Part shown: one piece after another, positions 6,712 to 53,170 of the stretch | Position numbering within the stretch: the first letter of the stretch is position 1 | How the letters are laid out: each line of letters opens with the position of its first letter | Source of the DNA: Polyangiales bacterium | Lineage (GTDB): Bacteria; Myxococcota_A; Polyangia; Polyangiales; Houyiibacteriaceae | Assembly: GCA_046351215.1 (NCBI GenBank) | Contig: JAXLYX010000019.1 | Location: 1-64,000 of the forward strand | Direction of reading: 5' to 3' | Length of the DNA stretch: 64,000 bases | Program-made: the position numbers and the translations under genes | Notes under the pieces: model-generated | What the model saw: only the letters and a program-made list of their open reading frames with translations | Database searches by the model: none | Told to the model about the DNA's origin: nothing

Positions 6712-6782
6712 CGATGAGAGCTCTTCGTGTCTGCTGAATCCGCCTAGAGAAGGTCGACGCGCGTTCGATTCGCCTAGGTGGA

Positions 6783-16864: not shown

Positions 16865-16868
<4 letters not shown>
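16146..16868 (+). CDS. rpe: Ribulose-phosphate 3-epimerase
   Basis: '[13 protein letters not shown]', '[12 protein letters not shown]', 'VDGG' motifs. True start may be the in-frame TTG (16185) or GTG (16197) downstream of the hairpin. Confidence 0.85.
16148..16182. terminator. 10-bp perfect inverted repeat GCCGTGCCCC / GGGGCACGGC with a 15-nt loop containing TTGACA, between metY and rpe. Could be a terminator-like hairpin or a protein-binding site.
   Basis: Inverted repeat seen directly in sequence, 34 bp after the metY stop and overlapping the first possible rpe start. Confidence 0.35.
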
Positions 16869-18249
<1,381 letters not shown>

Positions 18250-18253
<4 letters not shown>

Positions 18254-30339: not shown

Positions 30340-31742
30340 GCCAGGACGGCGGACGGATCCTCGTGGTCGATTCCGACTACGACACGCTCGATGCCCTGGC
30401 CACGGCGCTGCGCGGGCGCGGACACCACGTGGCCCTCGCCACCGACGGACGGCTCGGTCTGCAGAGCGCCGTCGAGATCGCGGCCGAGGTGATCATCGTC
30501 GACCGCGACGTGCAGGTCTTCGACATCCGCACCTTCCTCGACGTGCTGCGGGACAACCCGAAGACGGCCCACGCCCGCATGTTCGTCATGGGCAAGGGCG
30601 ACGTCGCGCACATCGCGTCGATCGACGGACGCGCCGAGCCGTTGGTCAAGCCCTTCAACGCCAACGAGATCTCCGCGCGCATCGACGAGATCCTCCGCGC
30701 GAAGCGGGCGCCGAAGCGCGAGCCCGAGCTCAAGGGCGACCTCTCGCAGGTCGCGCTCTTCGACCTGCTCCAGGTGTTCGCCGTGAACCACCGCACGGGC
30801 AAGCTCCGCGTCGAGAGCGAGAGCGCGGCCGGCGAGATCTGGCTGCGCGACGGTCGGATCGTCGACGCGACCCAGGGCTACGCCACCGGAGAGAAGGCCT
30901 TCTACCGGATCCTCGCCGTGACACGCGGGCAGTTCGTCTTCCTGCCCGGGCTCGAGCACAGCGAGGCCCGCATCGAGGCGAGCACCGAGTCGCTCCTGAT
31001 GGAGGGCGCGCGGCGCGTGGACGAGGTGGCACGGCTTCGATCGCAGCTGCCCGAGCTCTCGGCGACGATCACCGTCGGCGCCATGACGTCGATCCCGCCC
31101 GGCCTCTCGGCCGACGTCGCGCTCCGCCTCGACGAGCCGCGCGCGATCGAGGAGCTGCTCGACGTGCTGCCCGAGCACGATCTCGAGATCCTCGCGGCGG
31201 TGCGCGATCTCCTCGCCGGCGGGCAGGTCGTCGTCCACGACGTGAACGCGAAGGTCGCGTTCTGCGACCCGGACGAATTGACGGCCCTCTCGGCCGCGAC
31301 GCTCCGCATCCGTCGAGGCGGCGCGGAGGGACCGGCCCGCGTCGGCGTGATCGCACCCCGCGCCCTCGATCTCGGTCGATTCGCGCGGGCGCTCGCCTCG
31401 GTCCGGGAGTACCTGCCGAGCGCCGAGCCTCCCGTCCTCGTCGGCTCCGGCCCGATGGGTGTGATGGGCACGGTCCGGCTAGGGACGACGGAGCTCGAGC
31501 TCTTCGCGCTCCCCTACGAGTCGCCCTACCGCCCCCTGTGGGGCGCGCTCCTCGGATCCTCCACGGTCGTCGTGCACCTCGGCGTCGAGGTCGTCGCGGA
31601 CGACGTGAACGAAGCGCTCCGCGACCTCGACATCCGCATCGTTCGCTCGAAGTCGGGCTACGAGCGCGTGTCGGGGGCCATCGATCTCCTCCGCGACGCG
31701 CTCGGCGCCGCGGCGGGACGGGCCTACGCCGCCCCGAGGTAG
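30336..31742 (+). CDS. Response regulator receiver protein with DUF4388 domain
   Basis: Receiver 'RILVVDSDYD...EVIIVDRDV', followed by 'GDLSQVALFDLLQVFAVNHRTGKLRV', typical of DUF4388. ATGA overlap with the upstream gene. Confidence 0.7.
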   Translation: MSQDGGRILVVDSDYDTLDALATALRGRGHHVALATDGRLGLQSAVEIAAEVIIVDRDVQVFDIRTFLDVLRDNPKTAHARMFVMGKGDVAHIASIDGRAEPLVKPFNANEISARIDEILRAKRAPKREPELKGDLSQVALFDLLQVFAVNHRTGKLRVESESAAGEIWLRDGRIVDATQGYATGEKAFYRILAVTRGQFVFLPGLEHSEARIEASTESLLMEGARRVDEVARLRSQLPELSATITVGAMTSIPPGLSADVALRLDEPRAIEELLDVLPEHDLEILAAVRDLLAGGQVVVHDVNAKVAFCDPDELTALSAATLRIRRGGAEGPARVGVIAPRALDLGRFARALASVREYLPSAEPPVLVGSGPMGVMGTVRLGTTELELFALPYESPYRPLWGALLGSSTVVVHLGVEVVADDVNEALRDLDIRIVRSKSGYERVSGAIDLLRDALGAAAGRAYAAPR

Positions 31743-33301
31743 ATCTTCAGCGTGTCCGCCGCGGCCTTCCGGTCGAAGGGCGAATCGGCGAGCTCGGAGC
31801 GCGTCGAGATCTTCGCGAAGAGCTCGTCGAGGTAGTGGTAGAAGTCCGTGCACTCGGCCACGGATTCGTCGAGGCGCGCCGGGTCGAGCAGGTCCACGTC
31901 GCGGAGCGACTCGAGCGCCGCGAGGAAGCGATCGAGACGCTGGTAGTCGGAGAGCCTCACGAGCTGGTAGCCGATCGCGCGGAAGTGCACCAGGAATTCG
32001 CGGACGAACTGGAAGCTCGCCGAGCCCACCCACCGGTCCGGATCGGACGGCGCCGCGTGGGCCTTCGCGAGGAAGGCGCGGAGGATCTGCGTGAACATCC
32101 AGACGTCACGGCGCAGCCGCTCGCTCGTCGCGCGTCGCACGCCGAGGTCGTCGTCGAGGATGGGCGGAGGCCGCGTCGGCTCGAGCTCCCGGCAGAGCGT
32201 CGCGATCGCGTGGTGGATCGCGCTGCGGAGGCTCGCGGAGGCCAGGCGGAGCTGCCGAGCGAGCTCGTCGTCGGCGACCGCGTCGTCCGGAGCCGGGAGA
32301 TCCCGTTCGAAGACGCGGCGCACCTCGACGCGCAGCGTGGTCGCGAGGCTCTCGAGCGAGCGGCGTAGCGAGACGAGGTCGCTCGCCTGCGAGACCAGGA
32401 GGTCGTAGCGCTCGTGCATGAGGGAGGCGGGCGTCGCGAGCAGCTCCCGCTCGAAGCCCGCGGCCATGCGATCCCCGGCGCGACCCGTGAGGAAGCGGGC
32501 GAGCGCGCGGAGGTCGCTGCGCAGCACCGAGAGCACCACGTACGAGCGACGCGTGGTCTCCGGCTTCTCGGCGTATTCCTCGACGAGGCGCAGGTAGCGG
32601 AGCGCCCGGAAGAGGGCGAGGAAGCAGAGGGCCGAGACGCGGTGCGCGGCGTCGTTCTCGACGCGGTGCAGGATCTCGAGGACCTCGGCGTTCCGTATCC
32701 GGTCGAACTCCGTGCGGAACTCGAGCGTGACGAGGGGGTTGAAGTAGGTGTTGCGCCCGATCTCCCGGACGACGGTGCCGAGCAGGGCGACGTAGAGACG
32801 ATGCGGGATGCGGCCGAGGCGGAGCATGCCGTCGGCCATCTCGAGGAAGCTCGAGAAGGTGTTCCGCAGGAGGAAGAGCGACTCCTCCGGCGTGTCCTGC
32901 GTGAGCTGCTCCTGGATCAGTCGGCTGCGCTCGGAGTCCTCGGGCAGGACCGACTCGAGGTAGCGGCTGAAGACGTAGGCGCGATCCTTCGGTCCGAGCA
33001 GCGCGCGGACCTGCGTGATCGATTCGTCGAGCGCGTCGCGGACGATCCGCAGCTCGTCGTGGAAGTCGTGCGCGACGGCCGCGGTCTTGCGCACCGGACC
33101 CGGATGGTTCCTCGGGTTCCCGAAGCAGGCGAAGCCCTTGAGGAGCATCTCGAGCTCGAAGAGGGTCTCCTCCTTCCGATCCCAGGGAAGGGAGGTGTAC
33201 CAACTGTCGCGGATCTCTCCCTGTTCGCGACGGAGGCCGCGGGTGTCCCGGAGCAGGTTCGCGTAGACGTCGCGGGACGGCAGCGAGATGGCGCGCGGCA
33301 T
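31724..33301 (-). CDS. Hypothetical protein (525 aa, predicted all-alpha), no recognisable motif
   Basis: Long ORF with non-repetitive, non-low-complexity sequence. Same strand as and 17 bp downstream of the SRPBCC-domain gene. 19-bp convergent overlap with the DUF4388 response regulator gene. Confidence 0.5.
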   Translation of the reverse strand: MPRAISLPSRDVYANLLRDTRGLRREQGEIRDSWYTSLPWDRKEETLFELEMLLKGFACFGNPRNHPGPVRKTAAVAHDFHDELRIVRDALDESITQVRALLGPKDRAYVFSRYLESVLPEDSERSRLIQEQLTQDTPEESLFLLRNTFSSFLEMADGMLRLGRIPHRLYVALLGTVVREIGRNTYFNPLVTLEFRTEFDRIRNAEVLEILHRVENDAAHRVSALCFLALFRALRYLRLVEEYAEKPETTRRSYVVLSVLRSDLRALARFLTGRAGDRMAAGFERELLATPASLMHERYDLLVSQASDLVSLRRSLESLATTLRVEVRRVFERDLPAPDDAVADDELARQLRLASASLRSAIHHAIATLCRELEPTRPPPILDDDLGVRRATSERLRRDVWMFTQILRAFLAKAHAAPSDPDRWVGSASFQFVREFLVHFRAIGYQLVRLSDYQRLDRFLAALESLRDVDLLDPARLDESVAECTDFYHYLDELFAKISTRSELADSPFDRKAAADTLKIYLGAA

Positions 33302-33317: not shown

Positions 33318-34397
33318 TCAATGCAGGCTGGCCCCGGCTACGGGCGTCGCGAAGGGGGCGACACCGCGGTCGAAGCCCTGCCGCACGGCACGGACCAGGG
33401 CCGCGTCCGGCTCGGGCCGTGGTGCGAAGGGACGCCGGGACGGAGGCTCGACGAGGACGGCCGCGAGGTGCTCGCCGAGCTCGTAGACGTCGGCCCGGAA
33501 TCGCGCGGGATCGCAGAGCCCGCGGTAGCTGGCCGCGTGGAGCTCGAGCACGAGCTTCGGCAGCTCGCCGTCCGCGAACGCCGCGAGGGCTCGCCGGCCC
33601 AGCTGGGCCACGGTGTCTTCGGGGCGCACGGTGGCGAAGGCGCGGGCGTACGCCGGAGCCACCGCGCCGCTCGAACGCCCGAGGCTGCGCGCGAGGCTCG
33701 CCTCGAAGCCCTGCGCGATCGGCGGCAGGAGCCGGAGGACGAAGCCGGGCTGGAGATAGACCTCGCCCCGGCGGACCTCGTCGACCACGGCGTGGATCGC
33801 GAGGGCGAGGCCGGTCGCCATGCCGGCGCGGTCGTCGTTCGTGGCGCGGAGCTCCTCGGCCAGGGCGACGAGCCGCTCCTCGGCGCGTTCCGCCTCGAGC
33901 CGGAGGGCCGGGAGCCGGGGGGCCTCGTCGAGATCCCGTCGCGGGGGGTACGGGCTCGCCGTCCGCACCTGGGAGGAGAGCTCGACCAGGCGATCCAGGC
34001 TCGACGCGAGCTCGTGGCCGAGGTGCAGACGGGCCGGGAGCGAGAGCAGGGGGCCGCGGAGGTCGACCTCGACCTTCCACTCCACGCGGGTCCGGTTCGG
34101 GCCGAGGGGTCGGAGGACGACCTCCGTGCGATGCCCGCGTATCACACCCGAGCCCACGGCCCGGAACCCGAGGCGCCGCCCCGGCTCCGCATCGACCACC
34201 ACCTCCTCGAGGCTGCCGTGCCGGCCGGGGAGCCCGACGGAGCGGAGGGCGCCGATACCGTTCGGATGCCCGCCGTCCCCCGGCGCGACCGTGCGGATGG
34301 GCGAGGTCGACCAGCGGTTCAAGGCCGACGGGTCGACGAGGAGCCCGAAGGCCACGGCCGGGCTGCAGGCGAGATCGCGATGGAGCTGGAAGAGCAT
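33318..34397 (-). CDS. SRPBCC (START/Bet v1/polyketide-cyclase-like) ligand-binding domain protein with C-terminal helical extension
   Basis: N-terminal about 150 aa 'SPAVAFGLLVDPSALNRWST...RLGFRAVGSGVIRGHRTEVVLRPLGPNRTRVEW' is typical of the SRPBCC fold. Located downstream of squalene monooxygenase. Confidence 0.5.
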   Translation of the reverse strand: MLFQLHRDLACSPAVAFGLLVDPSALNRWSTSPIRTVAPGDGGHPNGIGALRSVGLPGRHGSLEEVVVDAEPGRRLGFRAVGSGVIRGHRTEVVLRPLGPNRTRVEWKVEVDLRGPLLSLPARLHLGHELASSLDRLVELSSQVRTASPYPPRRDLDEAPRLPALRLEAERAEERLVALAEELRATNDDRAGMATGLALAIHAVVDEVRRGEVYLQPGFVLRLLPPIAQGFEASLARSLGRSSGAVAPAYARAFATVRPEDTVAQLGRRALAAFADGELPKLVLELHAASYRGLCDPARFRADVYELGEHLAAVLVEPPSRRPFAPRPEPDAALVRAVRQGFDRGVAPFATPVAGASLH

Positions 34398-34693: not shown

Positions 34694-36223
34694 TCACGAA
34701 ATTCCGGCCGGGGTGGGGCGCGCCGTGACGCTCCGCTCCACCGGCACCCTGCGTTTCGCCCCGGCCGGCGCGGGAGGAGGGAGGCTCCCTCGGGCCGCGA
34801 CGGCGGCGGCGACCGCGAGAGCGCTCGCCTCGACTTTCTCGGTGGTCAAACGAATCAGGGAGAGGAGGGTGGCGAGCCGGTCGAGGAGCGCCCCCTGCTC
34901 GCGTACGACGGCATAGTACGCGGCGAGGCCGAAGACGCGGACGTACTCCTCGGCGAAGTGGGTGACCGCGACGTCGTCCCCCGAGAGCAGCGCCATGGAA
35001 GCGCGTCGCGCGCGTTCGCTGCGTCGCCAGTAGGCGAAGATCCCCTCGCGCATCGCTCGCGTCGCCGGGGACGCCGCGAGGAAGACCTCGTAGAGCGCGT
35101 CCGTGAGGATCTCGCGCGTCCGCACGAAGGGCGTGCGGGCTTCTTCGTACGCGAGCAGCGCGTCGGCCTGCGTGGGCTCGTCCGCGAGCGCTTCGACCAG
35201 CGCGACGACGTCGTTCGCGCAGACCGTCATGCCGGAGGCCGTGAGCGGATGCGAGCAGCCGGCCGCGTCTCCCACGAGCGCCGCGCCGTCGACCACGGCG
35301 CGCGGCACGCGGATCTTGTGGTTGCCGCAGACCTCGAGCTCGCCCGCGTCGATCGCACGGAGCATGGAGCTCCGCAGCGGCTCCGGCACGACGGGCACGT
35401 AGCGGGCTCGGAGCGTGTCGGCGAGCGCCTTCCGATCCTTGTCGAGCGAGGAGGGGACGTCGATGCACATGCGGACGCGCCCTCCGCCGATCGGATAGGC
35501 GAGCACGGGCCCGGGTGCCCCGAGGAATACGTGGCCGTGTCCCTCGAGGGGGAGCTCGGTGTCCTCGCAGAGCACGGCGACGGTGAACGAGAGCAGCTCG
35601 CTCTTCTCGTCGAGGCCGAGCAGCCCGCGCAGCCGTGAGTGCCTCCCTTCGGCCACGACGACGAGGGGTGCGCGGAGCTCCCGCCCGTCGGCGAGACGCA
35701 CGCCGACGACCCGGCCTCGTTCGCGGAGGACATCGGCGACCTTGGTCCCGAGCTCCATCGACACTCCGTCGAGCGCCGAGACCACGCGGCGCAGGGTCGA
35801 GACCATGTCGCGATGATCCATCGCGATCCCGGTCGCCTCGCCTGTGCCCGAGGCGGGGTACGGAAGCGGCAGCGGGGCCTCGTCCGGTCGCGTCGCGACG
35901 GCGAATCCGACGACGGGCACGCCGCCCGCCCCGAGCATCGGCGCGTGCAGCCCGAGGGACGCGAGCACGCGAGCCCCGCGCGGATGGATCAGCTCGCCGC
36001 GGAAGCGCGGGTCCGGGCCCCTGCGTGCCTCGATCAACGTGACGTTCGTGCCCCGCTTCGCGAGCGCGGCCGCCGCCACGAGTCCCGTGAACCCGCCTCC
36101 GACCACGATCGCCGTGCTCGTCTCCCCACGTCCGCGTCCTTCGTCCGAGCTCGAGAAATCCACGTGCACCTCGCCTTCGTTCGTCGAGAAAAGCGATTGA
36201 AAGGCTACGCACGTCACGGGCAT
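34694..36223 (-). CDS. Squalene monooxygenase (squalene epoxidase)-like FAD-dependent oxygenase
   Basis: 'IVVGGGFTGLVAAAAL' FAD fold, 'GDAAGCSHPLTASGMTVCANDV' (squalene-epoxidase-type GD...HP-L-T-G-G-M-T-V motif). Start taken as the ATG at 36223 ('MPVTCVAF'). The TTG at 36247 or an internal GTG are alternatives. The 748-aa overlapping frame is an artefact. Confidence 0.7.
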   Translation of the reverse strand: MPVTCVAFQSLFSTNEGEVHVDFSSSDEGRGRGETSTAIVVGGGFTGLVAAAALAKRGTNVTLIEARRGPDPRFRGELIHPRGARVLASLGLHAPMLGAGGVPVVGFAVATRPDEAPLPLPYPASGTGEATGIAMDHRDMVSTLRRVVSALDGVSMELGTKVADVLRERGRVVGVRLADGRELRAPLVVVAEGRHSRLRGLLGLDEKSELLSFTVAVLCEDTELPLEGHGHVFLGAPGPVLAYPIGGGRVRMCIDVPSSLDKDRKALADTLRARYVPVVPEPLRSSMLRAIDAGELEVCGNHKIRVPRAVVDGAALVGDAAGCSHPLTASGMTVCANDVVALVEALADEPTQADALLAYEEARTPFVRTREILTDALYEVFLAASPATRAMREGIFAYWRRSERARRASMALLSGDDVAVTHFAEEYVRVFGLAAYYAVVREQGALLDRLATLLSLIRLTTEKVEASALAVAAAVAARGSLPPPAPAGAKRRVPVERSVTARPTPAGIS

Positions 36224-36258
36224 TCGCCACGAGAATCGGTGTAGCAAGCGTTCGCCTC

Positions 36259-36345
36259 GAAACGTGTTCCTCGGCCCTGTCGGACAGGATGAATGTGCAT
36301 CGAAACGTGTTCTCTCGCGCGTCCGGTCGTCCGTGGAACGTGTTC
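36259..36345. promoter_or_regulatory. Three direct copies of GAAACGTGTTC (third copy GGAACGTGTTC) at 36259, 36302 and 36336, in the divergent squalene-monooxygenase / squalene-synthase promoter region
   Basis: Repeats seen directly in sequence, spaced 43 and 34 bp apart, in the 230-bp divergent intergenic region. Candidate transcription-factor binding sites. Confidence 0.35.
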
Positions 36346-36475
36346 ACCGGATCTGCCTCGGAACCGCCCGCCGGATGACACCGGTTCAATCGTGTATCCC
36401 GACGGCTCGCCCGCGTCTTCCGCGGTTCGCCCGAATCCCCGGAGGGGCGTCTTGAAGACGGGCTCGCGGCGGACG

Positions 36476-37417
36476 ATGAGAGGGGCGCTCGCAACGAGAG
36501 GGGAACCCGTGGCCGACCTCGACCAGCTCCTGAAAGAGACCAGCCGTACCTTCGCGCTCGCCATCCCGCTCCTTCCGGAGCCGTACCGGCGCGAGGTGAC
36601 GATCGCGTACCTGCTCTTCCGGATCGCCGACACCTTCGAGGACGCGACCCACTGGGCGCGCGAAGAGCGGATCGCGGCCCTCGAGCGCTTCGTCGAGCTC
36701 CTGCGCGCCCGCGATCGCGACGGGCTCGTGGCCGCCACGAAGCAGTGGCTCGAGCGGAGCCCCAGCGACCACGCGGGCTACCTCGAGCTCCTCGCGGAGA
36801 CGCCCGCGGTCTACGACGCCCTCGAGGCGGTCCGCTCCGAGGCGCGCGTCGCGATCGTGCACCACACGGCACGCACCGCCCTCGGCATGGCGGACGTCGT
36901 CCGCAGGGCCGATGCGCGCGGCTCGCTCGCCCTCGACGATCTCGAGGACCTCCGCCACTACTGCTACCTCGTGGCCGGCATCGTGGGCGAGCTGCTCACC
37001 GATCTCTTCGTCATCCCGCCGAGCCCGGCGGCTCGCGTCTCGCGCATCCTCCGGGAGCACGACGTCGCGTTCGGCGAGGGGCTGCAGCTCGTGAACATCC
37101 TCAAGGACGCCGACGACGACGCGAAGGAAGGCAGGACGTACCTGCCCGCCGGGGTCGCCCGGAGCGAGGTGCTCGGGCTCGCTCGCGCCGACCTCGAGCG
37201 CGCCCGTCTCTACGTCCTCGCCCTGCAGGCGGCGAAGGCCGAGCCTGGCGTCGTCGCCTTCACCGCGCTCCCGGTCCTCCTCGCCCGCGCGACCCTCGAC
37301 AAGTTGGAGGTCGAAGGACCCGGAGCGAAGATCCCGAGGTCCGAGGTCGTCGAGCTGCTCTTCGGGCTGCAGGGGGCGTTGTCGCGGGGAGAAGAGGCGA
37401 TACCCCTCAAGAACTGA
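36476..37417 (+). CDS. Squalene synthase (trans-isoprenyl diphosphate synthase, head-to-head; eukaryotic-type)
   Basis: 'LLKETSRTFALAIPLLPEPYRREVTIAYLLFRIADTFED' (domains I/II, close to the eukaryotic 'SRSFAAVI...YLVLRALDTVEDD'), 'YCYLVAGIVGELLT' and 'GEGLQLVNILKDADDDAKEGRTYLP'. Start ATG at 36476. The ORF-track frame opens at 36293, but that N-terminus is Pro/Arg-rich. Confidence 0.8.
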   Translation: MRGALATRGEPVADLDQLLKETSRTFALAIPLLPEPYRREVTIAYLLFRIADTFEDATHWAREERIAALERFVELLRARDRDGLVAATKQWLERSPSDHAGYLELLAETPAVYDALEAVRSEARVAIVHHTARTALGMADVVRRADARGSLALDDLEDLRHYCYLVAGIVGELLTDLFVIPPSPAARVSRILREHDVAFGEGLQLVNILKDADDDAKEGRTYLPAGVARSEVLGLARADLERARLYVLALQAAKAEPGVVAFTALPVLLARATLDKLEVEGPGAKIPRSEVVELLFGLQGALSRGEEAIPLKN

Positions 37418-37425
37418 GGGAAGAG

Positions 37426-37548
37426 ACGTGCACGTGCACGATCCTCGTTCACGTGCACGGGCCGTCGTGCACGTGCACGTGCACGGTTCGCGTGCACGTG
37501 GACGGTTCGCGTGCGCGTGCACGATTTGCGTGGACGTGCACGCATCTC
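37426..37548. repeat. Dense tandem array of GTGCACG / CACGTG units: (CGTGCA)n followed by about three imperfect 19-bp units of the type GTTCGCGTGCACGTGGACG
   Basis: Directly visible: 'gacgtgcacgtgcacg...cacgtgcacgg...cgtgcacgtgcacgtgcacggttcgcgtgcacgtggacggttcgcgtgcgcgtgcacgatttgcgtggacgtgcacg'. Lies between the squalene synthase stop and the start of the GST-fusion gene. Confidence 0.6.
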
Positions 37549-40742: not shown

Positions 40743-40849
40743 GGGGCGGGCGAGCGACGATCTTCGTCCGTGCCCGAGGAGGGGTGGCCTTGTCGGCCAG
40801 TCGGCCGACCCTAACGTGTAGGGAAACGTAGCATTCAGCCGGTTTTCCG

Positions 40850-41659
40850 ATGCGCCCCCTCCTCGCCGTCGTCCTCGCCTTCCTCTTCCTCGCCGTCCAC
40901 GCCTACGCCCAGGTCCCTCCCACGACCACGGATCCCCGGGCCGTGATGGAAGCCTCGTACCGTCTCGACGCGGGCGATCGCCTGGTCGCCCGCGTCCGGA
41001 TGACGATCACCGACGCGCAGGGCCGTGCCCGCGTTCGCGAGGTCGTGCTCCGCGCGATGGAGTTCCAGGGCGGTCGCAAGACGCTCATGCTCTTCGAGAG
41101 CCCGGCGGACGTCCGCAACACGGGGCTGCTCTCGATCGACCACGACGAAGGCTCCCGGCGCGACGAGCAATGGCTCTACCTCCCGAGCCTGCATCGCGCG
41201 ACGCGCATCGCGGCCTCGCGTCGCTCCGGCTCCTTCGTCGGCTCCGACTTCAGCTTCGCGGATCTCACGGCGGCCGATCCCGACGAGTACGAGCTGCGCA
41301 TGGTGCAGGCGGACGTCGCGGTGAACGGCGAGCCCTGCTGGCGCATCGAGGCCACGCCGCGCACGCCCGCCATCCGCGAGGAGACGGGCTACGAGAAGAT
41401 CGAGGTCTGGATCTCGAAGCGCAGCCTGCTGGCGATCCGGACGAAGGCGACGATGGGGCAGGGGAGGGCGAAGTACGTCGCGCTCGAGGACGTGCGCCGC
41501 GTCGACGGCATCTGGACCGCGCATCGGGTCGTCGCCCGCACCGTCCGCAACGACCAGCTCGAATCGCAGACGGTGCTCGAACGCCGCGACGTGCGGTACG
41601 GTGATGCGACCGTGACCGAAGCCGACTTCACCGTGCAGCGCCTCGAGCGGGGACTCTAG
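40850..41659 (+). CDS. Secreted LolA-like / outer-membrane-lipoprotein-sorting-family protein
   Basis: Signal peptide 'MRPLLAVVLAFLFLAVHAYA'. Size (269 aa) and pattern are typical of small LolA-fold proteins encoded beside MMPL/RND exporters. Family assignment by recall only. Confidence 0.5.
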   Translation: MRPLLAVVLAFLFLAVHAYAQVPPTTTDPRAVMEASYRLDAGDRLVARVRMTITDAQGRARVREVVLRAMEFQGGRKTLMLFESPADVRNTGLLSIDHDEGSRRDEQWLYLPSLHRATRIAASRRSGSFVGSDFSFADLTAADPDEYELRMVQADVAVNGEPCWRIEATPRTPAIREETGYEKIEVWISKRSLLAIRTKATMGQGRAKYVALEDVRRVDGIWTAHRVVARTVRNDQLESQTVLERRDVRYGDATVTEADFTVQRLERGL

Positions 41660-41664
41660 CGTCC

Positions 41665-43170
41665 ATGCGCCTCGGTGCGCTCCTCCCCCCGCTGCTCGTC
41701 GCGGCGTGCTTCGTGTCGTCCGCCGCTCGCGCGCAGACGGTGGAGAGCGCGAGCGATGCCGTCGGCTGGGGCGAGAGCGCGTCCGACGAGAGCGCGGGCG
41801 ATGCGGTCGGCTGGGGCGGGGGCGAGGCCACGACCGCCGAGTCGCCTTCCGAGCCCGTCGACGAGGCTTCCGCGGAGCGTGCGACCTCCGTCGGAGGCAC
41901 GGTCCGCGGCGACGGCGCGATGTGGACCGAGCGTCTCGGCGACAACGGCTTCGCGAAGGCGCGATTCTCCTACGATCTCTGGCTCCGCCATCGGCTGCGG
42001 CGAGGTCGGCTCGTCCTCGGGCTGCACGGCGAGCAGGACTTCGCCTACCTCTACGAGCCCGAGACCTACGATCAGCCGACGATCGACGTCTACGGGTCGG
42101 TGATCCGTGCGGGGGAGAGCTACCTCGCGCTCGAGACCGCGAACGCCGAGCTCGCGATCGGCACGCAGGTCGTCAATTGGGGCCACGGCGAGATGCTCTC
42201 GGTCGTCGATCTCGTGAATCCGCGCGACATGCGCGAGCCCGGCTTGATGGACCCGATGGACGTGCGCATCCCGGCCCTGATGAGCCGAGGCTCGTGGACG
42301 AACGGCCGCACGCGGCTCGAATTCCTCTGGCTCCACGAGGCCTACTTCCGCCTGCGCCCGCCGCCCTTCGGGACGTGGAGCCTCGTCCGCACGGCCGTGC
42401 TCACGGATCCGACCATCGCGATGACGCCGTTCCCTTCCTACGTCGACACCCGCGACGTCTACTGGCAGCAGAGCCCGCGACGCGTGTCGGTGGAGAGTCA
42501 GCAGGTGTTCGCGCGGGTGACACGGACGCTCGGACCGGTCGACCTCGGCTTCTACGCGGCCGACTACCTCGACCCGATCGGCACGGCGACGTTGCCCGAG
42601 GCGAGCGCCTGGGCGAACGCGGCCGTGTACGTGCCCCTCGACCATCTGCGCACGAACACGATCGGCGCCTCCGTCTCGTTCGTGCACCGGGATCTCTCGG
42701 GCTGGCTCGAGGTCGGCTGCGACATCCGGCGCCCGGTGAACACGGTGGATTTCGCCACGTTCGGCATCGGCACGGAGCGGCGCACGCTCTTCCGCTGGAC
42801 GCTCGGCGTCCGCTACCAGGGGCTCCGCGACACGACGATCGCCCTCGAATACGGGCAGGGAACGCAGCAGGGGCCCGGCGGGAGCGACTACCCGCTGCTC
42901 GTGCCGATCTTCCCCGCGACGCTCGCCGCGCGCGTCGAACGGAGCTTCGCACGGGAGCGATTGCGCGCGATGATCGTGGCCGCGCTCAACGGCGAGCACT
43001 TGGCGGGAGGTGGCTTCGCGCGCGCGCAGCTCGCCTACGTGCCGATCGACGGACTGACTCTCTCGATCGGCTACGCGATCTACTTCCCGACCGACACACC
43101 GTCCCTCGTCTGGGGCTTCACGACGAACGATCGCTTGATGGTCGGAGTCCGTTACGATTTCGCTCGTTGA
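41665..43170 (+). CDS. Secreted protein, probable outer-membrane beta-barrel (DUF1302-like?)
   Basis: Signal peptide 'MRLGALLPPLLVAACFVSSAARAQ'. Alternating beta-strand-like composition. The C-terminus 'GVRYDFAR' lacks a terminal Phe, so the barrel call is tentative. Confidence 0.45.
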   Translation: MRLGALLPPLLVAACFVSSAARAQTVESASDAVGWGESASDESAGDAVGWGGGEATTAESPSEPVDEASAERATSVGGTVRGDGAMWTERLGDNGFAKARFSYDLWLRHRLRRGRLVLGLHGEQDFAYLYEPETYDQPTIDVYGSVIRAGESYLALETANAELAIGTQVVNWGHGEMLSVVDLVNPRDMREPGLMDPMDVRIPALMSRGSWTNGRTRLEFLWLHEAYFRLRPPPFGTWSLVRTAVLTDPTIAMTPFPSYVDTRDVYWQQSPRRVSVESQQVFARVTRTLGPVDLGFYAADYLDPIGTATLPEASAWANAAVYVPLDHLRTNTIGASVSFVHRDLSGWLEVGCDIRRPVNTVDFATFGIGTERRTLFRWTLGVRYQGLRDTTIALEYGQGTQQGPGGSDYPLLVPIFPATLAARVERSFARERLRAMIVAALNGEHLAGGGFARAQLAYVPIDGLTLSIGYAIYFPTDTPSLVWGFTTNDRLMVGVRYDFAR

Positions 43171-43281
43171 CCTTGCTTTCCCGACTCCGGCCACTTGTCC
43201 GGATGTAGGTATGGCTCCTACGTGGTGGCACGAGCCGAGCCGACGCGGCTCCTCGCGTGGAACGCACGGGAAAGGAATTCC

Positions 43282-43569
43282 ATGACCGGCAGCCCCATCC
43301 ATCCGACGGACGACGGCCTCGCGGTCGAATGGCTGATGTCGCTCCTCGCTTCCACCGGGGACATCTACGTCCGTCCCATCGCCGGCGGTCCGACGATGGA
43401 GACGTCGCTGCGCGAGGAGCTCGGGCTCGACTCCATCGGGATGGTGGGCGTCTTCTACGCGGTGGTCGACGAGCTCGGTCTCGACGCCGACGAGCGCGTC
43501 GTGGCGGACTGGCGCACGGTCGCCGACGTGGTGCGCTTCGCACGGAGCGGAGCCGAAGGAGCGGCATGA
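43282..43569 (+). CDS. Acyl carrier protein
   Basis: 'LGLDSIGMVGV' phosphopantetheine-attachment (DSx) motif, 95 aa, strong Shine-Dalgarno GGGAAAGGAA. Stop overlaps the next gene (ATGA). Confidence 0.75.
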   Translation: MTGSPIHPTDDGLAVEWLMSLLASTGDIYVRPIAGGPTMETSLREELGLDSIGMVGVFYAVVDELGLDADERVVADWRTVADVVRFARSGAEGAA

Positions 43570-44981
43570 CGAACGCGCCTCCGTGGAAGACGGTCGCGCT
43601 CGATCCCGATGGACGTCGGCGCAGCGAGCCGATCCTCGCAGGGCTCCCCGAGGTGCCTCCGCTCTCGGTCGTCGTGCTCGCCGTCGCCGATCCCGCGTTC
43701 CTGGTGGCGGGCTACGAAGCGGTGCTCGCCCGGGAGGCGATCCCGCTGCTCCTGCACGGCACCACGCCGCTCGCGCTCGCGCGGCGGATGGTCGAGCGGG
43801 TCGGCGCCGCGGCCCTCCTGCATGCGCCCCTCGAGGGGGATCCCCACGTCGAGACCGCCCCGGCGGGAAAGGCCCGACTGCCGGAGCGCGGACATCTGCT
43901 CTGCACGAGCGGCACGACGAGCAAGTCGGGCGAGCCGAAGGTCTACTTCTTCCCCGAGGCCCGGGCCGAGGCGAACGCCCGCGCGCATCTCGCTTCCCTC
44001 GGCCTCGCCGACGCGCGCGGTCTCCGCATCCTCCTGCCGCTGCCCGTGAGCCACGCGTTCGGTCTCGTCTGCGGACATCTCGCGGCGCGGGCGACGGGCT
44101 CGACGCTCCTCGCGTTCACGAGCACGCCCGATCCCGCGACGTTGCTCGAGGTCGCGGCGCGCGAGCAAGCCCAGGTGCTCCACCTGACCCCGCCCATGGT
44201 GCGACTGCTCGCGCGGCGTCACGCGCGCAGAGCCGCCCCCGCGCTGCCCGAGCTCTCGCTCGTCGGCGTGGGCTCGGCGCCGAGCACGGCGGGCGAGATA
44301 CGAACGCTCCACCGGCTCTTCCCCGCGTCGCGCATCGTCGCGACGTACGGGCTCACGGAATGCGGACCCCGCGTGGCGACGTTCCAGGCCGGGACCGCCG
44401 AGCATCCCTCGATGCTCCTCGACGTCGACGACGCCGCGCAGGTGCCCCTCGGCGAGCCGCTCGCGGGCGTCCGGCTCGCGCTCGAGGACACAGGCTCCGA
44501 TGGCGTCGGAGAGCTCGTCGTGCACACGCCTTACGTCGCCACCGGACGCCTCGTCGACGGCGCGCTCGAGCCCATGCCCGCCGGTCCCTTCCGGACGCGA
44601 GACGCCGCGCGTCGCGAGGCCTACGGCGGGATCACCCTCCTCGGTCGCATGGACGGAACCATCGTCCGAGGCGGGACCAACGTGTATCCGACGAACGTCG
44701 AGCCGCTCGTCGAGGACGTGGCAGGCGTCACCGGCGTCTGCCTCGTCGGTCAGCGCTCCCCGACCTACGGAGAGGTCCCCGTGCTCGTCTGCGAGGTCGC
44801 GGCCGGGACGCACGAAGAAGAGCTCCGTCGGTCGATCGAGGCGCGGCTCGCCGACGAGCTCCCGCCGACCGATCGCCCCGTCGAGATCCGCTTCGTGCGC
44901 ACGCTGCCGCGCACCTCGCTCGGCAAGGTGATCCGCGCCGAGGTGAAGTCCAGGCTGGAGGCCCCGCATGGCTCTTGGTGA
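43566..44981 (+). CDS. AMP-dependent synthetase/ligase (adenylate-forming enzyme, short form)
   Basis: 'LLCTSGTTSKSGEPK' (AMP-binding motif I), 'ATYGLTECG', 'GELVVHTPYVATG', 'TRDAARREAYGGITLLGRMD' (motif with hinge Asp), 'SLGKV' terminal Lys. Confidence 0.75.
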   Translation: MTNAPPWKTVALDPDGRRRSEPILAGLPEVPPLSVVVLAVADPAFLVAGYEAVLAREAIPLLLHGTTPLALARRMVERVGAAALLHAPLEGDPHVETAPAGKARLPERGHLLCTSGTTSKSGEPKVYFFPEARAEANARAHLASLGLADARGLRILLPLPVSHAFGLVCGHLAARATGSTLLAFTSTPDPATLLEVAAREQAQVLHLTPPMVRLLARRHARRAAPALPELSLVGVGSAPSTAGEIRTLHRLFPASRIVATYGLTECGPRVATFQAGTAEHPSMLLDVDDAAQVPLGEPLAGVRLALEDTGSDGVGELVVHTPYVATGRLVDGALEPMPAGPFRTRDAARREAYGGITLLGRMDGTIVRGGTNVYPTNVEPLVEDVAGVTGVCLVGQRSPTYGEVPVLVCEVAAGTHEEELRRSIEARLADELPPTDRPVEIRFVRTLPRTSLGKVIRAEVKSRLEAPHGSW

Positions 44982-45999
44982 TCGGCACGCCTCGCTCGGC
45001 GGGAAGGGCGTCGCGATCCGCGGCATCGCCCATCGCCTCGGCTCGCGGAAGGTGACGAACCAGGACATCATCGACGAGCATCGCATCCGCCTGAAGGACG
45101 CGTGGGTGCGCGAGAACATCGGCATCTCCGAGCGCCATTGGGTCGGGCCGCACGAGTCGACCGCGACGATGGCGGCGGAGGTCTGCGCCGAGCTCGTCGG
45201 GAACGCGGGGCTCGCGCCGGCGGCAGTCGATCGCCTGATCGTGGCGACCGTCTCTCCCGAGGTGATCACGCCCTCGACCGCCTGCATCACGCAGTCGATC
45301 TTCGCGCCGGGCACGGCCTTCCCCTGCATGGATCTCGTCGCCGCCTGCGGAGGCTTCCTCTACGCGCTCGACGTCGGCAGGCGCTGCGTACAGACGGGCG
45401 ATCGGAACGTCCTCGTCGTCGCCTCGGAGGTGCGGAGCGCCTTCCTCGACAAGCAGGATCGGCGCACGGTGATGCTCTTCGGCGACGGCGCCGCGGGCGT
45501 GCTCCTCACGCCGGCCCGAGAGGGCGAGGTCGGCATCGTCGACACCCGCCTCTTCGCGGACGGTCGCTTCTGGGAGGCGATCTCGGTGCCGGCAGGCGGC
45601 GTGCGGCGGCCTGCGTCCGCGGAGACGGTCGCGGAGAAGGCCCACTCGATCACGATGAAGGACGGAGCCGCGATCTTCGAGCGAGCCGTCGCCGAGATGA
45701 CGGAGCTCGTGAAGGCGATGGTGCTCGGCCACGGCGCCACGCTCGACGAGGTCGACTTCTTCGTCTTCCACCAGGCCAGCGTGAACATCGTGAGGCGCGT
45801 GCTCGAGGCCCTCGGGATCCCCGAGGAGAAGACCTGGATCAACTTCCCCCGCGTCGGGAACTGCACCGCCGCTTCCGTGCCGATCGCGCTCTCCGAGGCC
45901 GTGCGCGCAGGTCGGGTGAAGCGGGGCGATCTCGTGTGCTCCGTCGCGACCGGAGGTGGGTTCACCGCCGGGACGGCGCTCTTCCGCTGGGAGGTCTGA
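44968..45999 (+). CDS. FabH-like 3-oxoacyl-ACP synthase III / OleA-like thiolase-fold condensing enzyme
   Basis: Cys-His-Asn triad contexts 'MDLVAACGGFLYAL', 'FVFHQASVNI', 'RVGNCTAASVPIAL'. 343 aa. Confidence 0.85.
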   Translation: MALGDRHASLGGKGVAIRGIAHRLGSRKVTNQDIIDEHRIRLKDAWVRENIGISERHWVGPHESTATMAAEVCAELVGNAGLAPAAVDRLIVATVSPEVITPSTACITQSIFAPGTAFPCMDLVAACGGFLYALDVGRRCVQTGDRNVLVVASEVRSAFLDKQDRRTVMLFGDGAAGVLLTPAREGEVGIVDTRLFADGRFWEAISVPAGGVRRPASAETVAEKAHSITMKDGAAIFERAVAEMTELVKAMVLGHGATLDEVDFFVFHQASVNIVRRVLEALGIPEEKTWINFPRVGNCTAASVPIALSEAVRAGRVKRGDLVCSVATGGGFTAGTALFRWEV

Positions 46000-46000
46000 C

Positions 46001-46828
46001 ATGAAGGGAACGCGACGCATCGAGGACTGTCGGGTGTGGGTGACGGGCGGGCGCCGCGGTCTCGGATACGCGTTCGCCGCGCATTTCGCCTCGCTCGGAG
46101 CCGAGGTCCACATCACCTCCCGCGAGCCGGGGAGCGCGGCCGCCGTCGAGGCCGTCGACTCCCTCGCCCACGCGGCGCGCGCCCACGCGGTCGGCCACGG
46201 CACGCAGGCGAAGCCCGTCACGGTCCACGGCCTCGACATGGCCGATCCCGCGAGCCTCGACGCGCTCTCGGACGCGATCCGCCACCATCCGCCGCACGTC
46301 CTCGTCCACGCGGCCCACGTCTTCGCCGACCACGTGCCGATCGTCGGTCGGAAGCCGGAGGACTTCGCCCGAGGTCTCTCGTCGAACGTCGTCTCCGCCT
46401 ACACGATCCTCCGCTCCGCGGCGCGCGCCATGGCGCGCGAGGGGCTCGGACGCATCCTCGTCGTGGGCAGCTTCGCGACGGTGAAGCCGGGCCTCGGACA
46501 GGTCGGCTACGTGACGGAGAAGGCGGCGCTCGAGGGCATGGTCCGCTCCTTCGCCGCGGAGTTCGCGGCGCGCGGCGTCCACGTGAACGTCGTGCATCCG
46601 GGCATCTGCGACACCGAGAACGTCCGCGACCGCGTGCCCGAGGTGATCCGCGACGCGTACGCCGCACGGACCAGCGCCGGGAGGCTGCTCTCGCCGAAGG
46701 AGGTCGTGCTCGCGTCGTTCTCGCTGTGCGATCCCCGGCACGCCGGGATCACGGGCCAGTCGCTCGCGATCACGGGCGGCGCCGATCTCGCGGGCCTCGT
46801 GGCCGGCACCTCGGGGGCGGAGACGTGA
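46001..46828 (+). CDS. Short-chain dehydrogenase/reductase (SDR), ketoreductase-like
   Basis: 'VWVTGGRRGLGYAFA' dinucleotide fold, 'YVTEKAALEGM' (YxxxK), 'VHPGICDT'. GGGAGG Shine-Dalgarno sequence, 1-nt gap after the KAS III stop. Confidence 0.8.
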   Translation: MKGTRRIEDCRVWVTGGRRGLGYAFAAHFASLGAEVHITSREPGSAAAVEAVDSLAHAARAHAVGHGTQAKPVTVHGLDMADPASLDALSDAIRHHPPHVLVHAAHVFADHVPIVGRKPEDFARGLSSNVVSAYTILRSAARAMAREGLGRILVVGSFATVKPGLGQVGYVTEKAALEGMVRSFAAEFAARGVHVNVVHPGICDTENVRDRVPEVIRDAYAARTSAGRLLSPKEVVLASFSLCDPRHAGITGQSLAITGGADLAGLVAGTSGAET

Positions 46829-47637
46829 GCACGCGCGGCGCGATCGTCCGCTCCATCGTGCTCTTGCCCCCGCTCGGCCACGACGCGGCGCTCTACGCGC
46901 CGCTCGCGCGCGCGATCGGCGATCGGCTCGAGGTCGTCGCGCTCGACTATCCCGGCTTCGGCGAGGAGCCACAGGGCTTCGACTACGAGGCTCCCGAGCT
47001 CCTCGAACGGCTCGCCGGGCACTTCGCCCAACGCATCGACTCGCTCGGGATCGAGCCGGTCTTCCTCGGCGGCGTCTCGCTCGGCGGCACGCTCTCCTTC
47101 CCCCTGGGCTCGAGGCTCGCGCGAGCGCCCGAGGGAAGGCTCCTCCTCGCGTCGGGAGGTCTTCCCGTGGCGATGGTCCGGAAGGACGCCGTGCGCACGG
47201 CGATGAACGAGCTCGGCGCCGTCGGCTTCGCGCGCAGGCACCTCGGGCTCGACCATCCGGACCTCGACGCGTCGAGCCTGCGGACCCACATCGGTCGCAT
47301 GACGGAAGACGTCGCGCGCTACTTCGAGCACTACTTCCACACGACGTGGGAGGGTCCGGCGTTCGAAGCCCGCGCGAACGCCTCCGTCGCGATGCTGAGA
47401 GCCGCCCTCGACGTCGACTTCCGCGAGGCGATGCGCGATCCACGCCCCCGTTCGGTGGTGATCTGGGGCGACCGCGATCGGATCTTCTCGCGATCGTTCG
47501 TCGACCGTCTCGTCGCGACGCTCGCACGCCCTTCGCTCCACGTCCTCGACGGCGTGGGGCACTACCCCCCGCTCGAGGCTCCCGACGAGGTCGCACGGAT
47601 CGTCGTCGAGGCCCTAGAAGGAAAGGCAGAAGCATGA
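46825..47637 (+). CDS. Alpha/beta-hydrolase fold protein (thioesterase/OleB-like?)
   Basis: 'FLGGVSLGG' nucleophile elbow (GxSxG), C-terminal 'LDGVGHYPPLE' His. GTGA overlap with the SDR gene. Confidence 0.7.
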   Translation: MSTRGAIVRSIVLLPPLGHDAALYAPLARAIGDRLEVVALDYPGFGEEPQGFDYEAPELLERLAGHFAQRIDSLGIEPVFLGGVSLGGTLSFPLGSRLARAPEGRLLLASGGLPVAMVRKDAVRTAMNELGAVGFARRHLGLDHPDLDASSLRTHIGRMTEDVARYFEHYFHTTWEGPAFEARANASVAMLRAALDVDFREAMRDPRPRSVVIWGDRDRIFSRSFVDRLVATLARPSLHVLDGVGHYPPLEAPDEVARIVVEALEGKAEA

Positions 47638-48326
47638 CCGACCACAGCAGCCATCCCGTGATCGCCCGGTTCGATCGCGTCCTCGAGGAGGCGGTCGGCC
47701 GGATCGAGGACAGTCCCTTCGTGAAGGACCTCGCCGCCGGCAAGCGCGTGCTCCCCCTCTACGAGGCCTATCTGCGCGAGGCGTACCATTTCGTGCGCCT
47801 GACCTCGTCGTTCACGCCGCTCGCGGCGCGGCGCATGGATCCGGAGCTCCTCGGCCTCCGCCAGTGGATCCTCCACCACTCGGCCCACGAGATGGGTCAC
47901 GAGCTGATGGCGCTCCAGGACCTCGAGCTCCTCGGCCAGTCGCGCGAGTCGGTGAAGGCGAGCCAGCCGCGCCCCGGCACCTGGCAGTGGGTCCACTTCT
48001 TCTACTACCAGGTCGTCGAGCGTCCGCCGTTCGCCGCCATGGGCGTCCTCTACTTCCTCGAGGGGATGGCCGCGAAGCTCGCGCCCATCGTCGTGCAGCA
48101 GGTGCTGCCCTCGCTCGAGGGCGAGAAGAAGCGGGCGACGCTCTTCGTGCGCGAGCACGGCGAGCTCGACCTCGAGCACACGGACGAGCAGAAGGACGTG
48201 CTCGTGAAGTACTGCACGAATCCGTTCGACCAGGACGTCGTCTGCGAGACGATCCTGCAGGCCAGCTACGCCAAGCGCGCGATGATCGATCACATCGCCG
48301 AGACCGTGGGGAACCGAGCGCCATGA
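47634..48326 (+). CDS. Heme-oxygenase-like fold protein (TenA/PqqC/CADD-type; candidate HO-like non-heme di-iron oxidase)
   Basis: 230 aa, all-helical composition with carboxylate/His pairs 'HHSAHEMGHE', 'YFLEGMAAK', 'VREHGELDLEHTDE'. ATGA overlap on both sides. Family call is pattern-based and tentative. Confidence 0.5.
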   Translation: MTDHSSHPVIARFDRVLEEAVGRIEDSPFVKDLAAGKRVLPLYEAYLREAYHFVRLTSSFTPLAARRMDPELLGLRQWILHHSAHEMGHELMALQDLELLGQSRESVKASQPRPGTWQWVHFFYYQVVERPPFAAMGVLYFLEGMAAKLAPIVVQQVLPSLEGEKKRATLFVREHGELDLEHTDEQKDVLVKYCTNPFDQDVVCETILQASYAKRAMIDHIAETVGNRAP

Positions 48327-48559
48327 CCGTCACCGAATCCGACCTCAAGAAGATGATCTCGGCGATCTGCCGCGTGCCCGAGGAACGCATCGCGCGCGAG
48401 ACGCGCTTCGTCGCCGACCTCCACATGGACTCGCTCGCGAGCCTCGATCTCCTCACGGAGCTCGAGGAGGTCCACGGCGTCGTGATCACGCAGGAGGAGG
48501 CACGCCACCTCCAGACCTTCGGTCACCTGCTCGATTTCCTCGAGAAGCGCGAAGACTGA
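48323..48559 (+). CDS. Acyl carrier protein (second copy)
   Basis: 'ADLHMDSLASLDLLTELEE' DSL motif, 78 aa. ATGA overlap with the upstream gene. Confidence 0.75.
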   Translation: MTVTESDLKKMISAICRVPEERIARETRFVADLHMDSLASLDLLTELEEVHGVVITQEEARHLQTFGHLLDFLEKRED

Positions 48560-48563
48560 GCCC

Positions 48564-51140: not shown

Positions 51141-51144
51141 CCGA

Positions 51145-52584: not shown

Positions 52585-52705
52585 CGCTCGCCTCCCGTCG
52601 GAGGAACGGTATCCGAGTCCGCGTCGGGTGTCGTGGGCGGAGAAGGGCGCGACCGTCGCCCGGCGGACCCAAGAGGGTTCGAGCCGCCGGCGGACTCCTG
52701 AGCCC

Positions 52706-53170
52706 TCAGCCGATCCGCGCCAGCAAGCCCCCCTTCGAGACGGGCTCGCCGGCGGCGACCGGCAGCGCGATCACCGTGCCCGCCGTCGGAGCGGCGATCT
52801 CGAGCTCCATCTTCATCAGCTCGACGACGAGGAGCGGCTGACCCTTCGTCACGACGTCGCCGACCGCGACGAGGAGGCGCGCGACCGTGCCGGCGGTCTT
52901 CGCCTTCACGGTCCCGTCGCTCGACTCGCCCGAGGCGCGTGCGCCGGGGCCCGCGCCGCCGCCCGGCTCGAGCGGACCGAACCGACGCGTCGCGGAGCCG
53001 GTCTGCTCGACGTCGAGCCAGAGCTTGCCGTGGGCGTCCCGCGAGGCCCGCGTCCGACGTCCGTCCGCGTGGAAGAGCAGGAACGCGCTCGGCCCGAGCC
53101 GGAGCACCCGGAGGACACCCGGGAGACGAGCGAGCTCGGAATCGCTCAGGATCGATGCGCGAGCTTCCAT
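52706..53170 (-). CDS. Biotinyl (biotin carboxyl carrier) domain ORF, probably the C-terminal part of the acyl-CoA carboxylase alpha subunit, displaced into another frame
   Basis: 'PLLVVELMKMELEIAAPTAGTV' (E-[AL]-M-K-M biotinylation motif) at the C-terminus. First ATG at 53170 overlaps the biotin-carboxylase ORF by 25 nt in another frame. Confidence 0.5.
   Translation of the reverse strand: MEARASILSDSELARLPGVLRVLRLGPSAFLLFHADGRRTRASRDAHGKLWLDVEQTGSATRRFGPLEPGGGAGPGARASGESSDGTVKAKTAGTVARLLVAVGDVVTKGQPLLVVELMKMELEIAAPTAGTVIALPVAAGEPVSKGGLLARIG

Follow-up and report, generated by a model that had tools for sequence, protein, structure and literature searches.

A conserved array of three KstR-like repeats between divergent squalene-pathway genes as a putative multi-site operator

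Three copies of an 11-mer that are built around the palindromic core AAC-NN-GTT were identified between a squalene-epoxidase-family gene and a squalene/phytoene-synthase-family gene. The two genes are transcribed divergently in the window, which denotes the whole 64-kb stretch of DNA that was analysed. The copies are clustered non-randomly, both the sites and their spacing are under purifying selection, and the 11-mers are identical to parts of sites that are bound by the mycobacterial repressor KstR. Judged from the comparison with a sister species, the repeats are a real and selectively maintained cis-regulatory array. We propose that they form a phased three-site array for one regulator, which may belong to any protein family, and that this regulator would co-ordinate both transcription units (probability about 0.8).

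Results

Position and clustering of the repeats

The repeats and the features around them are shown in Table 1. The flanking genes had been recognised as divergent squalene-pathway genes in an earlier sequence-only reading of this DNA, and this is borne out by the PF08491 gene on the minus strand and the PF00494 gene on the plus strand. The intergenic region had been given as 230 bp, and the non-coding gap was measured here at about 339 bp. The starts of copies 1 and 2 and the 43 bp between them had been placed correctly, whereas copy 3 starts at 36335 and not at 36336, and the second interval is 33 bp and not 34 bp. The start-to-start spacing of the copies is hence 43 and 33 bp, and all three copies are on the plus strand.

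The 11-mer has three matches at no more than one mismatch in 64 kb, compared to 0.33 expected, and none of the 100 shuffles reached three matches. When two mismatches were allowed, the extra matches elsewhere in the 64-kb window were only at chance level. The palindromic core AAC-NN-GTT (AACNNGTT) is present exactly three times in the 64-kb window, all of them within the 87 bp of the array. Across 563 kb of comparable high-GC loci, the core was counted at 0.07 per kb. A GC content of 71% was measured. Copies 1 and 2 have a longer unit in common, which is GC(C/A)TCGAAACGTGTTC, and the conserved unit around each core is a 13-15-mer, either (T)CGAAACGTGTTCTC or TGGAACGYGTTC. Relaxed motif searches of the 64-kb window gave no further copy above chance level, and the sister contigs of 9-11 kb carry none beyond the array.

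Table 1. Features of the intergenic region and of the genes that flank it. Positions are those of the window.
Feature	Position	Strand	Characteristics
525-aa protein gene	31724-33301	minus	End of the epoxidase gene string
SRPBCC-domain protein gene	33318-34397	minus	
Squalene-epoxidase-family FAD monooxygenase gene	34694..~36169	minus	PF08491 SE, E 3.7e-41
TTCAATCG-N7-CGACG, epoxidase side	36182..36201	minus	13-32 bp upstream of the epoxidase start codon
Repeat copy 1, GAAACGTGTTC	36259..36269	+	14-mer in the KstR-box frame, CGAAACGTGTTCCT, at 36258-36271
Repeat copy 2, GAAACGTGTTC	36302..36312	+	14-mer in the KstR-box frame, CGAAACGTGTTCTC, at 36301-36314
Repeat copy 3, GGAACGTGTTC	36335..36345	+	14-mer in the KstR-box frame, TGGAACGTGTTCAC, at 36334-36347
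Two spacers flanking copy 2	36270-36301 and 36313-36334		Length fixed, sequence variable
Conserved non-coding stretch upstream of the synthase gene	36346..36508	+	Identity to the sister species 85%, higher than at neutral sites
TTCAATCG-N7-CGACG, synthase side	36385..36404	+	40 bp downstream of copy 3
Squalene/phytoene-synthase-family gene, 302 aa	36509..37417	plus	PF00494 (SQS_PSY), E 1.2e-33
CACGTG tandem array	37426-37542		Palindromic, CACGTGCACG-rich; between the synthase gene and a GST-like gene; 6, 19 and 25-nt periods

Conservation of the sites and their spacing

The window was compared with a near-identical strain (L003) and with one sister species that is present on two contigs (L001 and L002). 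The epoxidase of the sister species is 90% identical to that of the window and the gene order is identical. This lineage or its sister is also present in the Logan assemblies of SRR6837574, SRR14932613 and SRR34691363. In the intergenic alignment, the three 11-mers are identical to the sister species at 32 of 33 positions (97%), whereas the spacers between them are identical at 23 of 54 positions (43%; 15/32 and 8/22 individually, ungapped). The Fisher test of this difference gives p = 6e-8 for a footprint that is drawn from two species only. Copies 1 and 2 are each identical at 11/11 positions and copy 3 at 10/11. The sole substitution is a change of T to C in the central NN of copy 3, from GAACGTGTTC to GAACGCGTTC, and the copy of the sister species is a perfect palindrome. 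The distances of 43 and 33 bp are equal in both species, and small compensating indels inside the spacers are likely.

The neutral benchmark was the four-fold codon sites of five flanking genes, which are 64-73% identical to the sister species. The spacers are only 43% identical and have therefore drifted at roughly the neutral pace or above it, whereas the sites have stayed fixed. The conserved repeats, the decayed spacers and the kept spacing together support the view, which had been put forward in the sequence-only reading, that the repeats are a multi-site operator. That view holds in that the sites are of one kind, conserved and phased; one binder for both genes is a proposal. The pattern is characteristic of sites at which proteins bind and whose relative arrangement is important.

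The recurrence of ACGTG in the tandem array downstream of the synthase gene had also been pointed out. The recurrence is literally true and has no significance, with the array not conserved in the sister species. There, only one unit is left in a gap of 73 bp, and the array was rejected as part of the repeat system. The tandem array draws only spurious microRNA-like matches from Rfam. It is a rapidly evolving palindromic VNTR that is unrelated to the three repeats. The repeats themselves do not behave as a VNTR, as their spacers are unrelated to each other and their copy number and spacing are equal in the sister species.

No intermediate relative with this promoter was found in the collections searched. 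The motif cluster is missing from the upstream regions (563 kb) of 84 epoxidase genes of greater distance, which comprise four loci from protein look-ups and 80 metagenome loci with epoxidases of at most 54% identity, so the arrangement is lineage-specific. In a syntenic Sandaracinaceae-like relative (L136:3128-6109), the squalene genes are replaced by a P450 gene that is divergent from two TetR genes, and the intergenic palindrome at that locus (GAATGCGAGCGATGGCTCGTATTC) differs from the window repeats. The upstream regions of distant epoxidase genes were observed to have their own unrelated tandem arrays, such as about 17 copies of a unit of about 20 nt (L004:5520-5880). A CCCGTT x9 array was observed upstream of a distant myxobacterial epoxidase gene (L007:5730-5790).

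Promoter elements and flanking genes

The intergenic region is also conserved on both sides of the array. The stretch at 36170-36258 is 88% identical to the sister species, which is above the neutral level. The stretch on the synthase side (Table 1) is probably the promoter plus the 5' leader of the synthase gene. A coding extension upstream of the synthase was rejected, as the substitutions lack codon periodicity (11/7/6) and an in-frame ATG is missing from the sister species. The stretch was also considered as a riboswitch or structured leader, and this was rejected because Rfam gave no match and the fold of 36360-36520 is not more stable than those of shuffled sequences (z = +2.5).

The two TTCAATCG-N7-CGACG elements are the arms of an inverted repeat, and each of them points at its own gene. 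TTCAATCG is present only twice in the 64-kb window, and both occurrences are conserved in L001, L002 and L003. Each element also has (G/C)GAA(C/T) 25 nt upstream. These elements are candidate core promoters or candidate sites of a second factor. If they are the core promoters, the repeats are upstream of both. A consensus scan of the region identified no sigma-70-type promoter. Readings of the repeat motif as a sigma-70, sigma-54, ECF, LexA or LacI-type element were rejected, as no consistent match was obtained by eye or scan.

The best NCBIfam model for the synthase is squalene synthase. The protein is 57% identical to the synthase of a Byssovorax MAG, where the synthase gene is divergent from an epoxidase-oxidosqualene-cyclase pair. 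This arrangement and the family matches make the sterol-pathway reading of both genes reasonable. No oxidosqualene cyclase gene was found in the 64-kb window.

The epoxidase gene is the first gene of a minus-strand string, and it is followed downstream by a small ORF, the SRPBCC-domain protein gene and the 525-aa protein gene. The automatic call for the epoxidase of the sister species (470 aa) begins inside the Rossmann beta-1 strand, and the GTG 63 nt further upstream (36107-36169, minus strand) is the more likely start. The start was thus placed at the GTG at 36169, from the reading frame that is open and conserved in both species. The 525-aa protein has no match in Pfam, NCBIfam or PDB. The sister-species version is 97% identical to it, and homologues with 60-70% identity are found throughout Sandaracinaceae, including Sandaracinus amylolyticus, which puts the organism close to this family of Myxococcota. 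In three relatives (L136-L138), the homologues are not adjacent to squalene-pathway genes.

A lipid-handling cluster was observed at 40832-52770, about 3.4 kb past the 3' end of the squalene synthase gene. The cluster encodes LolA-like, DUF1302-like, AMP-dependent ligase, KAS III, short-chain dehydrogenase and FadL-like outer-membrane proteins, together with an MMPL/RND transporter that matches sterol-sensing-domain and Patched models. The cluster may be a sterol or lipid export system.

Resemblance to the KstR box

The KstR box, TnnAACnnGTTnnA, is the operator of KstR, a TetR-family protein that represses the breakdown of cholesterol in the actinobacteria Mycobacterium and Rhodococcus (Kendall et al., 2007; PMC1995591). 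GAAACGTGTTC is part of some EMSA-positive KstR sites of M. tuberculosis, such as AATGAAACGTGTTCTAGCCT in front of Rv3545c, and the reverse strand of the KstR site ACTAGAACACGTTCCGATTT reads GGAACGTGTTC (PMC1995591). Both 11-mers of the window occur verbatim in these experimentally bound sites. When the full text of the literature was searched with the 11-mers, the KstR paper was the sole regulatory-motif paper among the matches listed, and the other titles were unrelated.

A position weight matrix (PWM) of KstR was built from 47 published sites (PMC1995591). Copy 3 scores 12.9 bits, copy 2 scores 12.3 bits and copy 1 scores 10.7 bits, which are the best, second and third scores in the 64-kb window. 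A match of 9-13.6 bits was found once in shuffled windows. The genuine KstR sites score 13.0-27.2 bits with a median of 24.2 bits, and all window sites are below that minimum. The copy 3 of the sister species, TGGAACGCGTTCTC, scores 18.2 bits and is within the range of genuine sites.

No perfect TnnAACnnGTTnnA is present in the 64-kb window, where copies 1, 2 and 3 match 6/8, 6/8 and 7/8 of the specified positions, respectively. All three copies have the AAC-NN-GTT core, and the sister species retains it. Of the six positions that an outer T or A of TnnAACnnGTTnnA would occupy in the three copies, only one has the expected base, likewise in both species, and the PWM deficit of the window sites is due to these missing bases. 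The missing outer T/A and the scores below those of genuine sites make the repeats KstR-like and not proven KstR sites. They may be KstR sites of low affinity that are filled only co-operatively or, just as well, sites for a paralogous regulator whose outer-base preference has shifted.

Genes for a regulator of this kind were searched for. The Pfam and NCBIfam scans of about 35 window ORFs identified no TetR gene, and the only regulators among them are two sigma-54 activators, response regulators and similar proteins. A tblastn search with three TetR proteins, including a KstR homologue, was negative, and neither the window nor the sister contigs yielded a TetR or KstR gene. No DNA-binding domain was detected in the 525-aa and 359-aa proteins that the epoxidase gene string encodes. 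AibR, the TetR protein of M. xanthus that belongs to the isovaleryl-CoA/mevalonate branch, was considered and rejected, as its operator is unrelated.

KstR-type boxes in other contigs

A total of 185,579 genomes were scanned for pairs of the 11-mer motif. Pairs that match the KstR box were identified in other Myxococcota: one contig has the tandem pair TGAAACGTGTTCTA-N7-TGGAACGCGTTCTA (L009:2549-2583), another has the tandem pair TAGAACGCGTTCCG-N8-TAGAACACGTTTCA (L042:3099-3134), and a third (L019) has two copies of TGGAACACGTTTCA. The L009 and L042 pairs score in the range of genuine sites; three of their four boxes are perfect and the fourth matches at 7/8. Each of these two pairs immediately precedes a P450 gene. 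Among solved structures, the P450s are most closely related to the CYP125 and CYP124 steroid C26-monooxygenases, with E of about 1e-160 to a reconstructed CYP125 ancestor.

Five perfect TnnAACnnGTTnnA boxes were identified in 8.6 kb of a metagenome contig that has no taxon label (L139; JGI contig Ga0558120_06298), and the core that they share with the window lies in TAGAACGTGTTCTA. The first part of this contig (L139:1-4700) encodes a KshA-type Rieske oxygenase, a 198-aa TetR protein, a ferredoxin and a CYP125-like P450. A second TetR gene, a LolA-like gene and ABC-transporter genes are also present on the contig. The best solved relatives of the 198-aa TetR protein are M. tuberculosis KstR structures (full length, E 2e-20), and this protein is 73% identical to the TetR protein of L009, which is a Myxococcales MAG. 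The outer T/A is kept in all boxes beside the CYP125/KshA genes of L009, L042 and L139, except for one box in L042. KstR-type boxes are therefore present in Myxococcota MAGs (L009 and L042), and the closely related contig L139 has both such boxes and a KstR homologue. The KstR-type regulon that appears on these contigs points to steroid catabolism in Myxococcota.

The TetR protein of L009 is encoded divergently from the CYP125-like gene, and it was rejected as a special relative of KstR both over its full length and in its DNA-binding domain. No boxes were found near its more distant homologues (L140 and L141). This protein is therefore a poor proxy for the binder.

Tandem or dispersed repeats with GAAACGTGTTC in the unit were observed in many unrelated bacteria and in one Haloferax (among L008-L055), for example at L027:1-290, L031:4440-4740, L030:2613-2707, L044:4656-4690 and L022:6962-7007. 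The units of these repeats are 12, 21, 29, 42 or 45 nt and their flanks are unrelated. In one Bacteroides MAG, an element with GGGAAC-N4-TTCCC repeats at a spacing of 22 nt is present five times. The widespread occurrence is probably in large part ascertainment, as the search had required two copies of the 11-mer.

Discussion

In the mechanism that we propose, one sequence-specific regulator would bind all three sites and would co-ordinate the epoxidase gene string with the squalene-synthase gene. The centres of the sites, which are 43 and 33 bp apart, are separated by about 4.1 and 3.1 helical turns, so that all three face one side of the helix and co-operative binding of the proteins would be feasible. 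Co-operative binding on one face would explain why the length of the spacers is kept while their sequence is not. The array is between two mirror-image promoter-proximal elements, so its occupancy would affect both transcription units.

The binder would most likely be a dimeric TetR-family repressor, and its ligand would be derived from a sterol or an isoprenoid. That the binder is a TetR-family protein with KstR-like DNA specificity is a tentative assignment to which we give slightly less than an even chance. The one orientation of the sites and their conserved asymmetry count against a TetR protein, as neither is required by a symmetric dimer. If the TTCAATCG elements are the core promoters, the position of the sites upstream of both would also be more typical of activators than of TetR repressors. 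All KstR targets known to us are catabolic, and the biosynthetic targets in the window count against the KstR reading. It is doubtful, in our estimate, that a KstR-type sensor of sterols or steroid-CoA was recruited in one Sandaracinaceae-like lineage and now controls the entry into sterol synthesis via three low-affinity boxes.

The repeats would be upstream activating sites if the binder was a non-TetR regulator (AraC/XylS, LuxR/FixJ, OmpR or sigma-54 enhancer-binding) that switches on both weak divergent promoters. Such an activator is consistent with the direct copies, which are asymmetric beyond the 3-bp palindromic arms in both species, with their conserved helical phasing, and with their location between, hence upstream of, both mirror-image TTCAATCG elements. 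The lack of a detectable sigma-70-like promoter is as expected of activator-dependent promoters, and two sigma-54 enhancer-binding proteins are encoded in the window (6738-8195 and 16166-18253). However, no -24/-12 (GG-N10-GC) element was seen by eye in the conserved blocks, no such gene is adjacent to the locus, and no known activator motif fits the repeats, whereas their 11-mer matches KstR sites exactly. An activator is the main alternative to a TetR-family binder, and we consider it somewhat unlikely on this balance. The repeats also contain G(G/A)AAC, which we take to resemble the ECF-type -35 consensus. They would then be the -35 boxes (GGAAC/GAAAC) of three tandem promoters for an ECF sigma factor, directed toward the synthase gene, which all copies face, and an extra conserved GGAAC is found at 36360. 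This arrangement is improbable: no common or conserved -10-like element is present 16-19 nt after any copy, where the DNA has diverged, and the conserved unit runs on through GTGTTC(TC), which is more than a -35 box needs.

A functionless remnant of local duplication, or a chance cluster, might be suspected from the 16 nt that copies 1 and 2 have in common, from a 19-nt stretch over which copies 1 and 3 are 79% identical, and from the richness of myxobacterial intergenic regions in tandem repeats. Such an origin is very improbable for repeats that are 97% conserved between spacers that are 43% conserved (p = 6e-8) and whose spacing is kept; the adjacent tandem array evolves freely and shows no such conservation. 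The long conserved non-coding stretch before the synthase gene could suggest a role at the RNA level, with the repeats as binding sites for a protein or an sRNA in a long 5' leader. We find this hardly credible. The repeats are mid-way in a divergent intergenic region, their palindromic core and helical-turn spacing are properties of the recognition of double-stranded DNA, no Rfam match was obtained, and 36360-36520, which is downstream of the repeats, is no stabler than shuffles.

Sterol synthesis in Myxococcota attracts study because it bears on how eukaryotic sterols originated. Nothing was found in a literature search on the regulation of bacterial sterol synthesis. The three-site control region between two committing genes is a testable handle, as it provides a bait for the regulator and a PWM for the regulon. 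The KstR-like sites of the window, together with the boxes in Myxococcota and the KstR homologue on the related contig, suggest a link of sterol breakdown to sterol synthesis in these bacteria. If the recruitment of KstR is true, sterol catabolism or uptake would be coupled to synthesis, and this would be the first transcriptional sterol-homeostasis circuit for bacterial sterol biosynthesis. If the binder is an ordinary local regulator with an unrelated ligand, the array would be a routine promoter element.

Comparison with known systems

In animals and fungi, squalene synthase and squalene epoxidase are under one sterol-linked input through SREBP and its SRE sites. The motif, the protein family (bHLH-Zip) and the mechanism of SREBP are unrelated to those of the window, and the likeness is a functional analogy only. 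The CarH/CarA operators that regulate carotenoid synthesis in Thermus and Myxococcus have three 11-bp direct repeats. They are similar to the window repeats as three direct 11-bp units at isoprenoid-pathway genes in related bacteria. However, the CarH repeats are contiguous from head to tail, have another consensus and overlap the promoter, whereas those of the window are spaced at 43 and 33 bp. The locus has no adjacent MerR/B12-binding gene.

The window sites and the KstR box have in common the AAC-NN-GTT core, the free central dinucleotide and the connection to sterols. KstR sites are often located between divergent genes, sometimes with two sites per region, and the window sites are also between divergent genes. 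The window differs from KstR sites in having three sites of the same orientation at distances of 43 and 33 bp. The KstR box is tied to catabolic genes for steroids and lipids (cyp125, kshA and fadE), whereas the genes that flank the window sites are biosynthetic, and this association is absent there.

The boxes of L009, L042 and L139 are similar to the window sites in their multi-site clusters and high-GC background, and their hosts are in or near Myxococcota. Unlike the window sites, nearly all of these boxes are complete 14-bp palindromes that are paired 20-22 bp apart. They precede CYP125-like, KshA and KstR-like genes, and there are no squalene-pathway genes at those loci. What is new in the window is that KstR-like boxes are present in an unusual number, at an unusual spacing and in an unusual gene context.
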